Source: Alphaproteobacteria bacterium
GTDB taxonomy: Bacteria; Pseudomonadota; Alphaproteobacteria; JABAAW01
Direction: 5' to 3'
Length of the DNA stretch: 29,416 nucleotides
Assembly: GCA_014238625.1 (NCBI GenBank)
Contig: JABAAS010000002.1
Location: 1 to 29,416, forward strand
Shown: in pieces, positions 5,440 through 12,556 of the stretch
Position numbering within the stretch: position 1 is the stretch's first letter
How the letters are laid out: every line of letters begins with the position of its first letter
Made by a program: the position numbers and the translations under genes
Notes under the pieces: model-generated
Database searches by the model: none
Told to the model about the DNA's origin: nothing
Seen by the model: the letters and a program-made list of their open reading frames with translations, nothing else

Positions 5440-7212
5440 TGCTTCACCGAATTCCTTAACTACTTCCTCCGAATCCCAGCCAACTATCTCCTTACCCATA
5501 GCCTTCTCTATCAAGACCAATAATCTAGCAGCGCGATCACGGATAAATTCTTTGAATTTATCTTCTCGTAGTAAAGATGGCTCGGTCGCGTGCGAAGCCA
5601 GAAAGCCATCAAGCCGTGCAGTTTCAACTTTTTTCCTCTGCGTAATATCCTCTAAATACTTGCTAGGAGCCTTGCCAGCAAGGAATTTATTCGTAGCTGC
5701 AGAAATGGCTGCCTTGTTAACAATAGAATTCCAAAACTCCCGCGGATAATTATGTTTCTCACAATACGCCTTTGGAAAAATATGATGGATGTCAATCTTA
5801 TCAGCGTAATAAGTGATAATATCAGCCCTAGTACCCTTAATAAAATCTTCACTACCAAGTTGCATCAACAGAGCCATCATGCCTTTGTAGGCAGCACTCT
5901 GACGGGTTTGTAGAGTTAGAAAACGGGTAGGTTCAAAGTTCGCCTCTACAAATGATCGAGGTTCCTTACCTCCTTTTAGCCACACAAGCAAATCGACAAA
6001 GTCATTGGCAACACGCGTCTCGGTAGCACCAGCGTAAAGCTCGCCGAAAATTCCGCACCAGTACCAACGCACCAGCTTCTGCTTCGTGCTATCATTATCG
6101 CATTCATCGCCAAGATGCGCGCACACAGCCGCTAATGGAACTAGCTGGGAGCTATACGGCAAACTGCGCGAATCAAATATCTTTTTGCTTATTAACAGTT
6201 TAGCTGCAGAAATAAAGCCTTCCCCTACAATATCCGCATTTTCCTTATACTGCGCCAAATTCAAGTCGAGGATATTCTTGCGCTTACAACTAACAGCAGC
6301 ACCTTCCATCTTATTGGTGGCAAGCAAAGTTACCGCTTGCAGAAAGTCAGTAGAATCTATTGAAGACAATATTTTATTAAGGTTTTCATTTTCCGCAAAT
6401 TTTTCTTTGCGTTCCTCCCAATCCTTACGTAAATCAAAGCCCTCCATAGCATACGTTGCTGTCATAAGCTCAAACACAGTCAATGTAACACCGCGGGTGT
6501 TAACCTTCTCGAAAACTTGGCAAACCGCTTGCTTACTAGTCTCATTAGAAAGGGTGATCATGGCAAAACGGTACTGTAAAAAACGCTGGCGTACGTTCGA
6601 TTCGAATTCGTAAATCTTTTTAACATTTGCGTTGTCCCGTCTGAAAAAATCTATATAACCTTGTTGCCATGAGAGAAATTTGCTCCCATCTAACAACAAA
6701 TCAAGCGGAAATAACCCAAACTTATATTCATTTTCGGGGCTACTCGCATCAATTATAACCTCACGCCTAAAGTCACGTCGTATTCTATTTGGAGGTAAAG
6801 AAATAACTGCATCTTCACGGTCTGCGCTATCATCTAGGCACTTGGCGATATCAAAATAATATACAAGCTTAATTTCTCTATCGCCGCTTGTTCTGGTTAA
6901 AACCTCTTTACCGCTACGAAGAACCGAATAAATGGCAGTCATTCGTTGCTGACCATCCAAAATTAATGAAGATGGTTTGGGGTCGCTAGATTCTGGGGCT
7001 CCCTCAATGGCACGACACTTAAAATTGGTCGTTTCACTAACAGTATCTAGTAGCATAACCACACCAATCGGATAAGATAGAGAAACGCTAGCTATCAGCG
7101 AGCAAATAAGATGATCATCCCAAACCCAGCTTCGTTGAAAATCAGGTAATTGAATCTCCCCCCTATCAATTTGCTCTAATGTTTTAAACAAATCAGGGTC
7201 ATCGATGCTGAA
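5419..7212 (-). pseudogene. DUF262 + C-terminal HNH-like (GmrSD-type) nuclease, separated from its probable start codon by an insertion
   Basis: IQLPDFQRSWVWDD and LILDGQQRMTAI are DUF262 motifs; DIHHIFPK...NSIVNK...TNK is HNH-like. The frame is open upstream of the track's TTG (7191, no SD) to 7212 (FSIDDPD), where the inverted repeat begins. An in-frame RBS+ATG lies beyond the other repeat at 12544. Confidence 0.8.
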
Positions 7213-7244
7213 GGCATTGTGTGATGCACACTTAAAGATTAGAA
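7212..7244 (+). repeat. Left 33-bp inverted repeat of the RTX2 cassette
   Basis: aggcattgtgtgatgcacacttaaagattagaa; 29/33 identical to the reverse complement of 12501-12533. Similarity stops sharply on both sides. Confidence 0.9.
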
Positions 7245-7429
7245 TTTATGGCACCAAACAGAACTTTTAAACGCTTAACTTTTAGAATCGCGGGAAAAAA
7301 TATGGCAAACTGACTCTTCTAAACAAAATTGATACATTTTCCCAAAAATCAAGGCGCATAAACTCATTCTCCGAAAAATATGCCTCCCACAATGCAAACC
7401 TTATTCTAACAACCGCTTAAGCTTAGTTT

Positions 7430-10400
7430 TTAAGGGATGACGCTGTTAGATACTAGTATGTCTGTGCCACCATCAGAAGTGTTGTAGTAGATACTGAATC
7501 CGCCATCATGCCTGCCGTAGTAGTTAGTGACTATTACCTGCTGCGAAATACCGCTAACCGTCAAATCTATATGTAAATCACGGTCAACTCTGGTAAAGTC
7601 GCTCGACCTTAGGGCTTGGTAGTTGCCACTAGCACTAGAGCGGAAATAAATGCTTTCGTGGCCGCGGAAATCATCAATAGTATCGTTACCATCTCCAACT
7701 GAAAAATAGTACTTGTCATTGCCCCAACTGCCTCTAAGAGTGTCATCGCCAGTGCCACCTATAAGCGTGTCATTGTCCCAACTGCCATCAAGAGTGTCAT
7801 TACCAGCGCCACCTATAAGCGTGTCATTTTCCCTACCGCCATCAAGAGTGTCATCGCCAATGCCACCTATAAGCGTGTCATTGTCCGAACCGCCGTAAAT
7901 AGTGTCATCCCCTGCTCCGCCGTGCATTATGTCATCGCCTGCTCCACCTATGAGAGTATCATCGCCTGCTCCGCCGATGCCAACTATACCATAGTCTCCA
8001 TCAACAGCCTGATTGTAGTTTATCACAAAGCGACTAGGATCGTTATAGTAATCCGTAATAGTAACTTTTTGCGATACGCCATCAATGTTTAAACTTATCT
8101 CTAAATCATTGCCGTGCTTGGCAAAGCTACTAGCTGAAAAATCACTCAAGGCGTAAACACCAGAGCTGCTAGAGTTAAAGTATATTATACCGCCATCCGT
8201 GTCCGTTATCCTATCCATACCATCACCGACAATGAAATGGTATTCGTCGGTGCTAGAATCTCCGCCCATAAGCATATCATCGCCCGCGCCGCCATGTAGC
8301 TCATCATCGCCACCTTTGCCGTAGAGATGGTCTGCGCCAGCCAAGCCCATTATAATATCCGCACCACTCGTTCCAGCAAGAAGACTATCATCGCCAGTAG
8401 TGCCAGTAACACTAGCTCCAGTAAAGGTAGAAACAGTAACGGGTGTCCTTGTTAGAGACACCATAACTTCCGTATAGCCACCACCATTATCTAAGTGTTT
8501 TATGGTGAACTTGTCGGGGATAAGGAAGTAGTCGGTAATAGTGAAATCTTGCGTACCCCTAGAGGTAGACAACTGAAACTGTAAGTCATCACCGTCCCTA
8601 ATAAAAACAGTAGCGCTAAAAGCAGAAGCATAGGATTGGCCATATGAACCATCTCGGAAGTACAGTTCGCCACCGTCCGTATCACTAATCATATATGTGC
8701 CTCCACCACCAGAAAAATAGTACTTGTCATCACCTATGCCTCCATCAAGAAATTTGGTGACAGACACATCGTAAAGGTGAGAATAACGAGATCTGCCATA
8801 AAGAGCATCATCACCAGCTCCACCGTAAAGATTATCGTTGCCAATCCCAGCGAAAAGAGCATCATCGCCTGCTCCGCCGTAAAGATTGTCGTCGCCAGCT
8901 CCTCCCTCAATTTCGTCATCGCCACCTTCCCCGAAAAGATCGTCATTACCAGCTGCACCGTCAGGTTCCTCATCCCCGTAAAGATGATCGTCACCGTCTC
9001 CACCGTAGAGATGGTCATCTCCCTCTTCACCATGAAGGTAGTCATCGCCACCTGCTCCGTAGAGATGATCATTCCCTATCAAACCGTACACTACATCCGA
9101 TATGTTAGTACCAGTAAGCGTGTCCGCGTTAGAAGTACCGGTAATGTCGGTTAGTAAGGGAACCGTAACCGCTCTATATTCTCCACCCGAATAGCTGTTG
9201 TAGTAGATGCTAAAGCTGTTTGGATCGCTGTAATAGTTATCGATAGTAACTCGTTGCTCTATACCGCCTACCGTCGCATATATCTGTAAGTTTTGGTATA
9301 CCTTAGCAAAGGCGAACGCTGATAGTCCTTGATAGTTGCCACTGCTACTAGAGCTGAAATAAACACTGTTGCTACCATAGTTGTCCCTAATGGTGTCTAT
9401 TCCATCGCCTACATAAAAATAGTACTCTTCGTCACCGTATCTGTCAGAGAGATAGTCGTCGCCTTTTCCTCCATAGTATTGATCATTGCCTCTTCCTCCT
9501 CCACCATCTCCGTATATTCGGTCGTTGCCAGCTCCGCCGTGAAGTTCGTCGTGTCCACCACTACCGCCGCCGCCTGCATCACCATGTATTATATCGTCAC
9601 CAGCGCCACCATAAATCACGTCCGCACCCGCACCAGCGCCACCATCGCCAGAAAGAGAGTCATCGCCAGCTCCACCATAAATATAGTCGTTGCCTGAACC
9701 ACCAGATAGACGATCCCTATTTGCCCCACCGATAAGACCAGAAGTTACAGGAGCCTCGTAGAGCGGAACAATAGAAGCATCTATACTATGGACTATGCCA
9801 GACGAATCCTCGTAGTAAAACCTGTAGGTCGCAGAATTGCTCGATTCGTAATAGTCCTCAATTGTGATTTTTTGTTCAGCCTCGCCTACTTGTATAGTTA
9901 TAACTAGGTCATATCGACTGAGTGCGAAGTTGTCCGCTGTTAGAGCTTGATAGTCGCCGCTAGCGCTAGAGCGGAAGTAAATGTTGTTGCTACCGATCAC
10001 ATCAATAATTCTGTCACTTCCGCCGTAATTATTAATGTCTTCGACATTAAAAATGTAGTCGTCATCACCCGCCCCGCCGTAAAGAATATCGTTGCCCGCT
10101 CCTCCCTGAAGGACATCGTCACCTGCCAAGCCCGCAATGTCGTCAACATCGCTAGTGCCAATCAAGGCATTCGATCCAGAATCATCGCCAGATGTACCAG
10201 TGACAAAGTTTTTTAGAGGAACAACTTTATAATCACCGCCCAATTCCTCGTTGTAGAAAAATGTAAAAAGATTAGGGTTGCTGAAGTAATCGGTGATCGT
10301 TACTTGGTGGCGATCCCCAAACGCATACGAGTCTATCTCTAAGTCATTGCCGTTGCGGGAAAAAGAGCCAGAATAAAAATCGCGCGATGAATAGCTACCA

Positions 10401-12393: not shown

Positions 12394-12450
12394 TAGAAAA
12401 AAGCCCAAAGCAACAGAAGAGAGCAACGCACTCAATACTCGCGTCCTCCT
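12394..12450 (-). pseudogene. Out-of-frame remnant of an RTX3-type N-terminal leader upstream of RTX2
   Basis: Translates RRTRVLSALLSSVALGFFL versus RTX3 RKTRALTALLSATALGVFL (13/19 identical; shared DNA 11-mer gagagcaacgc). Stop immediately upstream and not in frame with RTX2. Confidence 0.65.
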
Positions 12451-12500
12451 GTAGATTATTTTCTAATCCTTATCTGTTTTCTCTAAAGTTGCTCTGTTTT

Positions 12501-12533
12501 TTCTAATCCTTAACTGCGCATCACACATTGCCT
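12501..12533 (-). repeat. Right 33-bp inverted repeat of the RTX2 cassette
   Basis: ttctaatccttaactgcgcatcacacattgcct; 4 mismatches against the reverse complement of 7212-7244. Confidence 0.9.
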
Positions 12534-12556
12534 ATCGTTGTCATGTCTATACTCCT
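12533..12556 (-). promoter_or_regulatory. Orphan ribosome-binding site and first four codons (probable native start of the DUF262 gene)
   Basis: The minus strand reads AGGAG-tatagac-ATG ACA ACG ATA and then enters the inverted repeat, which gives a stop three codons later. Joined to 7212 it reads MTTIFSIDDPDLFKTLEQIDRGEIQLPDFQR. Confidence 0.7.

Follow-up and report, generated by a model that had tools for sequence, protein, structure and literature searches.

The window analysed here is a 29,416-nucleotide stretch of an alphaproteobacterial genome (lineage JABAAW01; assembly GCA_014238625.1, contig JABAAS010000002.1, positions 1 to 29,416 of the forward strand) in which one very large RTX gene, RTX2, interrupts a GmrSD-like (DUF262) restriction nuclease gene just inside the end of a Tn7-like element. 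From its borders and its relatives we concluded that the inserted DNA, the RTX2 cassette (7220..12525, minus strand; 5,306 bp), is, as judged from its ends, a transposase-less derivative of a Tn7-like (TnsB-family) transposon. Read along the minus strand, the layout is ATAGG-CAATG-TGTGATGC...GCATCACA-CAATG-CCTTC. The 5-bp direct repeat CAATG is perfect at 12530-12526 and 7219-7215 and abuts TGT...ACA tips on both sides, with the octamer TGTGATGC beginning at 7220 on the plus strand and at 12525 on the minus strand; the same octamer ends a full-size relative from another metagenome (contig L022). We therefore read the repeat as a target-site duplication, with its left copy at 7215..7219 and its right copy at 12526..12530, both on the minus strand. 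These borders, read directly from the sequence, agreed with independent end homology, as three copies of this type of end lie in three different flanks and are homologous only from TGTGATGC inward, with no homology outside. An earlier reading of the same DNA, made from its letters alone (the sequence-only reading), had proposed a transposase-less mobile insertion of a whole RTX gene at this place, and that proposal was supported.

The sequence-only reading had based its proposal on inverted repeats at 7212-7244 and 12501-12533. We recovered these at the same 29/33 identity, and the RTX open reading frame was indeed the sole sizeable gene between the two arms. The reading had further taken GGCnnTG at the outer edges as the termini, had described the insertion as blunt and without a duplication, and had assigned the cassette to the IS5 (IS903 group) or IS1595 (ISPna2 group) families, none of which survived closer inspection. 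The outermost GG/CC and the duplication are sequence of the interrupted gene, codons Gly5-Asn6-Ala7; the duplication is 5 bp and not the 8-9 bp of those families; and such a duplication, combined with TGT...ACA tips and with boxes repeated in the subterminal DNA, belongs instead to the TnsB/Tn7-like family. The source of the misreading could be traced to the near-palindromic nature of CAATG: its reverse complement is CATTG, and so the inverted repeat seemed to run further outward than it does. The one A/T mismatch close to the outer edge of the 33-bp repeat is simply the centre of CAATG. A near-palindromic target duplication can thus mimic an outer inverted repeat and mislead family assignment. 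Two other placements of the borders were tried and set aside. A 3-bp AAT duplication with GTG...CAC tips gave the same restored sequence, and it was dropped once the ends on contig C154 of the same genome and on L022 showed where homology starts; a tip GTGATGC lacking the leading T, as on C154 alone, left no duplication and a frameshifted restored gene, and was rejected. In a second sample of the same study, contigs matched the cassette from 7220 and up to 12527, and these short contigs carried sequence like the left and right ends in other contexts, which agrees with the borders and suggests that the environment holds further copies of this end type.

The two halves of the interrupted gene lie directly outside the duplications. 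The 5' fragment (12526..12544, minus strand) reads ATG ACA ACG ATA GGC AAT G, preceded by AGGAG-N7 beyond the right arm just as had been reported, and now runs into the tip of the element as ATG ACA ACG ATA GGC AAT GTG TGA, that is, MTTIGNV-stop. The 3' part (5419..7219, minus strand) retains 597 intact codons and crosses the left junction in frame (...CAC AAT GCC TTC AGC, giving ..H-N-A-F-S, or ..NAFSIDD); its PF03235 frame stays open between 7212 and 5419, and TTG 7191 is the first codon in it that could serve as a start, again as first described. Deleting 7220-12525 together with one CAATG joined the halves into a 604-codon frame starting MTTIGNAFSIDDPDL (MTTIGNAFSIDDPDLFKTLEQ), which aligned without a gap to 40 homologues starting M(T/S)TIGNTF. 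Homologues of this protein number in the thousands, the closest being 75% identical, and their N-termini read MTTIGNTF(G/R)T.EPGL. The insertion point thus follows the first base of codon 7, not codon 4 as had been claimed. The product of the blunt model, MTTIFSID, lacks the conserved G-(N/S)-T and needs a 3-residue gap there, and the alignment of homologue N-termini that the sequence-only reading had suggested as a check gives MTTIGNTF. We also considered TTG 7191 as a natural start; no homologue among those listed starts so late, and seven further residues are retained even in the shortest, P0017.

As in type IV restriction enzymes of the GmrSD/DUF262 kind, which act against phages, the reading frame encodes an N-terminal GmrSD_N domain (DUF262, PF03235; E 4e-29) with the DGQQR-type motif LILDGQQRMT in the translated frame (P0001). 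Towards its C-terminus P0001 shows a DIHHIFP...N motif, with no Pfam match to the DUF1524 His-Me finger nuclease domain at E <= 0.001. The 597 remaining codons have no start of their own; the first in-frame start left to them is a TTG that no ribosome-binding site precedes, and the nuclease has therefore probably been switched off. As those 597 codons are still intact, the insertion was probably a recent event. For annotation, the GmrSD gene is to be described as interrupted, and the TTG start chosen by gene callers as incorrect.

The gene that was hit is itself cargo of another transposon. About 400 bp upstream of the GmrSD start lies a Tn7-like end of a different type (12790..12947, minus strand; TGTAAAATGACAC...), homologous to positions 9636-9800 of L003, a 359-kb contig from ENA. 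This contig carries the closest GmrSD homologue (P0003; 75% amino acid and 83% nucleotide identity) behind the same host end (TGTAAAATGACACTGAAGATTGCAC...), followed after ~365 bp by the uninterrupted sequence ATG ACT ACG ATA GGA AAC ACC TTT GGC. By this comparison L003 is a natural empty site in a relative, as the sequence-only reading had hoped to find. Homology between the window and L003 begins exactly at the TGT of the host end, in agreement with the Tn7-like end previously placed at 12947. This start of homology, together with the intact gene behind the L003 end, identifies the nuclease gene, on comparative grounds, as the cargo gene nearest the end of a second Tn7-like element, itself decayed. 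The defence cargo of this host element includes GmrSD and a TnsA-like/helicase remnant, and the element has lost its own proximal end, tnsB and tnsC. The loss was deduced by comparing window positions 2300-2530 with contig C187 (12960-13300), where the order is the 3' end of a tRNA gene, a host-type end, ~170 bp, and then tniQ-tnsA-tnsB-tnsC; the window keeps the C187-type tniQ leader (2438-2527), but the host-type end in front of that leader is inverted (2432, minus strand), and the window's tniQ has an internal TAA.

Several other features of the surroundings were recorded. Four host-type ends of the same handedness (TGTAAAAT...) occur in the window, at 2432, 12947, 18363 and 27423, all on the minus strand and three of them upstream of an RTX gene, an arrangement that resembles Tn7-like units stacked one upon another. 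An Eco57I-like methyltransferase and PLD-SNF2 helicase pair (18422-26295) is syntenic with genes in L003:1-6167, so that this relative too has the pair beside its RTX/GmrSD island. A weak left-end relic of the cassette type (..TGATGCGTAGTTAAAAACTTAG..) was noticed at 12986-13010, 33 bp beyond the host end; its similarity fades after ~30 nt, and it stands ~214 bp behind the stop codon of a neighbouring RTX gene, RTX1, at the spacing found in the RTX2 cassette. Between RTX1 and the host end are a tandem run of (GAGC)n type (13047-13075) and a run of at least 12 G residues (13100-13112), both of which could slip or be hard to assemble.

Assignment of the cassette to the Tn7-like family came from its ends and from the genes that accompany the same ends elsewhere. 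Its 'L' end, the one distal to the tns genes in relatives (7220..7350, plus strand), and its 'R' end (12455..12525, minus strand) each begin with the terminal octamer and carry two copies of a 14-nt box, TTAAnn(A/T)TTAGAA, located at 7232-7245 and 7275-7288 in the former and at 12513-12500 and 12473-12460 in the latter. The third copy of the end, at C154:9940-9966, is 80% identical to the cassette left end over 132 bp and has four such boxes. These three ends are the sole places in the 1.13-Mb genome where the box is clustered, its background rate being 0.026 per kb. We regard the boxes as putative TnsB-binding sites. The unit closed by the C154 end encodes a 634-amino acid TnsB (rve, Mu-transpos_C), a TniB/TnsC ATPase, a YgjP-like protein and a type I restriction-modification system. 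Its TnsB matched the solved TnsB chains of Tn6677, PseCAST, ShCAST and Tn7 with E values from 5e-42 to 1.5e-19. On L022, a TnsB that is 80% identical lies in a full tniQ-tnsA-tnsB-tnsC operon followed by defence cargo, and the distal end there consists of unrelated flank and then TGTGATGCGCAGTTAA with two boxes. Tn7-like elements are defined by their linkage to TnsB, TnsC, TnsA and TniQ together with TGT...ACA tips, multiple subterminal repeats and a 5-bp duplication, and it is these features that mark the cassette as Tn7-like. As there are no tns genes between its ends and RTX2 is alone there, it was filed as a non-autonomous derivative. Looking through the genome for the repeat beside a transposase or another RTX gene, as had been advised, was thus rewarded on C154, where the same end type borders a tnsB-tnsC element. 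A scan of all 11 genomes of the order for the end pattern, allowing as many as 3 mismatches, found it in no genome but that of the window.

The coding sequence of RTX2 (7430..12316, minus strand) specifies 1,628 amino acids, with its likely start at ATG 12316 behind GGGAGG-N7 and in frame with the listed open reading frame. It contains tandem GGxGxDxUx nonapeptide repeats in 19 stretches (PF00353, E 3e-127), the only domain type detected, and along the protein RTX blocks and copies of a ..VTI.DYY.. module follow one another in turn. A search of the protein collection for RTX2 homologues gave at best 43% identity over half its length, and the other open reading frames of at least 80 amino acids in the cassette had no meaningful Pfam match. 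Elsewhere in the genome, RTX genes occur on ten or more contigs, and a search for the HlyD component of type I secretion found it above the cut-off on contig C180 (type_I_hlyD, TIGR01843). The interior next to the right end proved to be shared with C154. Positions 12450-12487 (38 nt of the inner right end, including the second box) are 100% identical to C154:16228-16265, and 12395..12450 (minus strand) is an out-of-frame fossil of an RTX lipoprotein-like leader, 96% identical to C154:16665-16720, where another RTX gene has this leader in intact form (..RRARVLSALLSSVALGFFLEGC..). On C154 the 38-nt segment sits 400 bp further upstream of the RTX gene. The sharing of both the inner right-end segment and the leader fossil indicates, from the sequence comparison, that units of an end plus an RTX gene occur at least twice in this genome and that the interior of the cassette has been remodelled. 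Farther upstream of the C154 RTX gene (C154:16060-16200) we noted repeated boxes of another type (..AAATTCCA(A/G)TTTT.., TAAGTTCCA..), which may be a third kind of transposon end beside an RTX gene. RTX2 has the orientation of the nuclease gene and sits downstream of its promoter region, and no terminator-like site was found between RTX2 and the nuclease remnant; therefore the old nuclease promoter may now drive RTX2, and RTX2 may be co-transcribed with the remnant.

Both junctions of the cassette were present at flank-like depth (~23-27) in Logan contigs of the source run (SRR11455651; L005, run X1) and in a second assembly of the sample (L004). The sequence-only reading had gone on to suggest an adhesin/defence switch, in which excision would restore the nuclease and inversion would uncouple RTX2 from upstream promoters. 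No recombinase lies in or beside the cassette, and among the contigs of three runs covering 6800-12950 there was neither an empty-site joint (7219-12526) nor an inverted cassette, although contigs drop rare variants; the switch is thus without support. Precise excision is not among the known outcomes of TnsB-type (Tn7) transposition.

We consider it on balance probable that the cassette is a mini-element mobilised in trans, and this is our best explanation of its origin. The sequence shows that the element went as one unit, with a 5-bp duplication, into codon 7 of the GmrSD/DUF262 restriction gene carried by the decayed host element, as DDE transposition of the TnsB type with its 5-bp staggered cuts would do. 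TniQ-TnsA-TnsB-TnsC would have been supplied in trans by a full-size relative, such as the one of which C154 holds a part. The result is a nuclease reading frame cut to MTTIGNV-stop, with RTX2 placed behind the nuclease promoter region. Supply in trans, which the sequence-only reading had also proposed, is made plausible by the tnsB/tnsC element with the same end type on C154 in the same genome, and we favoured it because similar end-RTX units recur and because class 1 integrons lacking tni genes are a proven precedent. A number of observations weigh against this explanation or limit it. The candidate helper on C154 is incomplete, as the contig starts at tnsB, and the tip of the C154 end (C154:9963-9967) reads AGTGATGC, versus TGTGATGC in the cassette and L022, a changed terminal base that might keep that copy from moving by itself. 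No full-size relative yielded its tns-proximal end (the L022 contig begins within a CRISPR-like array, and the ends of L024-L027 are diverged), and hence the right end of the cassette has no comparator. The terminus together with its first box, used as an exact pattern, had 0 matches in genome_contigs and metagenome_contigs. A single copy of the RTX2 cassette is known, the pattern scans having produced no second end and the homologue search no close relative of RTX2. All reads come from one study, and unitigs break at 12442-12496, where the 38-nt exact repeat shared with C154 sits inside the right end. This break is a caveat for the interior of the cassette and not for its junctions, where the halves of the nuclease gene lie next to identical 5-bp repeats.

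The foremost alternative, although we regard it as rather unlikely, keeps the family and the insertion chemistry and holds that the element was autonomous when it landed, with a full tniQ-tnsABC set and RTX2 proximal to one end, and that the tns genes and other cargo were later lost by internal deletion in place, so that it was never mobilised in trans. That only one copy is known would suit this history. Internal deletions are also suggested by the interior next to the right end, a mosaic with its out-of-frame leader fossil, and by the left end, which keeps two of the four boxes seen on C154; given the gene order of the relatives, a single deletion that began just inside the tns-proximal end and stopped at the last cargo gene would yield the layout of the cassette. 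Set against this are the same inner right-end segment and leader upstream of a different RTX gene on C154, and the left-end-like relic 214 bp behind RTX1, which together point to repeated origin or movement of end-RTX units; neither observation settles the matter.

Trans-mobilisation of a Tn7-like mini-element was weighed against two further explanations. That a cassette of IS5 (IS903-group) or IS1595 (ISPna2-group) type, ending in GGCnnTG, went in bluntly behind codon 4 and works as a reversible adhesin/defence switch by precise excision or inversion, we consider very improbable. The 29/33 repeat does start GGCA(T/A)TG from 7213 and 12532, and a blunt deletion does keep the frame; but GGC-AAT are the conserved Gly-Asn codons of the gene, the 5-bp duplication exists, independent copies of the end are homologous only from TGTGATGC inward, and the end adjoins elements with TnsB and TnsC, not IS5 or IS1595 transposases. 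As for the switch, the cassette is without a recombinase, and contigs, which can miss rare variants, held no empty or inverted junction. We attach hardly any credence to an assembly artefact in which ends from different loci were joined through RTX or end repeats. The unitig break at 12442-12496, where depth rises to 92 through the sequence shared with C154, speaks for such an artefact; against it, each junction has one half of the same gene and a copy of the same 5-bp repeat, which a mis-join would not give, two assemblies agree, depth is even at ~23-27, and the shared exact repeat is just 38 nt long.

Relatives of the element showed further features. On L022, the closest full-size relative (ENA ERZ25069837, ctg25970), a CRISPR-like array of at least 5 copies of a ~36-nt repeat with a period of 66 lies directly upstream of tniQ (L022:59-349), and in two other relatives (L024:1-792 and L026:13783-17052) Cas9-like genes (HNH_4, RuvC_III) lie beside the tns operon; these CRISPR and Cas9-like genes may be ordinary defence cargo or may link type II CRISPR with this Tn7-like clade. 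In L026, whose TnsB is 62% identical, an end reading TGTCATGAGGACTTAAC... lies within ~25 bp of a tRNA-Glu(TTC) gene (18283-18356, 18200-18275), which suggests that tRNA genes are the homing sites of the clade.

With the element resolved to the base and a natural empty site at hand, the RTX2 cassette indicates that Tn7-like ends can move one very large RTX gene without an onboard transposase, and that such an element can disable the defence cargo of another Tn7-like island, a form of element-on-element interference. Its ends and boxes and the candidate cognate TnsB proteins of C154 and L022 could serve in a transposition assay of an uncharacterised Tn7-like clade. As a speculation that we would put forward only as a long shot, RTX surface or secreted genes of this small-genome marine lineage might be reshuffled as trans-mobilised mini Tn7-like cargo (the RTX2 cassette, the decayed C154 unit and possibly the RTX1 relic), with one family inserting into the defence cargo of a rival island, silencing GmrSD and taking its promoter, a transposon-versus-transposon anti-defence event that could be polymorphic.

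Among known systems, the cassette resembles Tn7-like transposons (Tn7, Tn6677 and relatives among the CRISPR-associated transposons, CASTs) in its TGT...ACA tips, its 5-bp duplication and the several subterminal repeats per end, and in the cognate TnsB, TnsC, TnsA and TniQ genes of the elements with the same tips (C154, L022); the gene order of its full-size relatives is tniQ-tnsA-tnsB-tnsC. It differs from full Tn7-like transposons in having no tns genes, and, unlike Tn7-like homing, it sits in a coding sequence and not at a tRNA or glmS-type attachment site; the related TnsB is only distantly akin to solved TnsBs (E 5e-42 to 1.5e-19). In consisting of ends and cargo only it is like laboratory mini-Tn7, but it is natural and not engineered. 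The mobile insertion cassettes (MICs) or transporter insertion sequences (tIS) of ISfinder, such as MIC231, are also transposase-less and carry passenger genes between transposon-type inverted repeats, having derived from insertion sequence families such as IS231/IS4. The RTX2 cassette shares their lack of a transposase, their inverted-repeat boundaries and their passenger, whereas its origin is a heteromeric Tn7-like system and its passenger, at 4.9 kb, greatly exceeds theirs in size. The class 1 integrons In0 and In2, which lack tni genes, transposed with the tni genes of Tn502 supplied in trans and made 5-bp duplications (PMC3575428). These members of the Tn402/Tn5053 family are likewise cargo-carrying derivatives of the TnsB/TniA family with both inverted repeats kept and the transposition module absent; in contrast, the RTX2 cassette has different ends, an RTX gene in place of an integron and no evident res-site hunting, and its mobility is predicted, where that of In0 and In2 was demonstrated. 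Tn7-like transposons are described by Benler et al. 2021 as carrying defence cargo and nested mobile elements, the latter being, in the passages searched, insertion sequences, composite transposons and Tn3-family elements (PMC8649781). The host element here is like theirs in combining defence cargo with a mobile element nested in the cargo region, and unlike them in that the nested element is itself a mini Tn7-like element with an end specificity different from that of its host. We concluded that the RTX2 cassette is a natural non-autonomous mini Tn7-like element, of a kind already known, and that its particular points are its single 4.9-kb RTX cargo gene, its insertion in a coding sequence and its position within defence genes carried by an element of another Tn7-like family.

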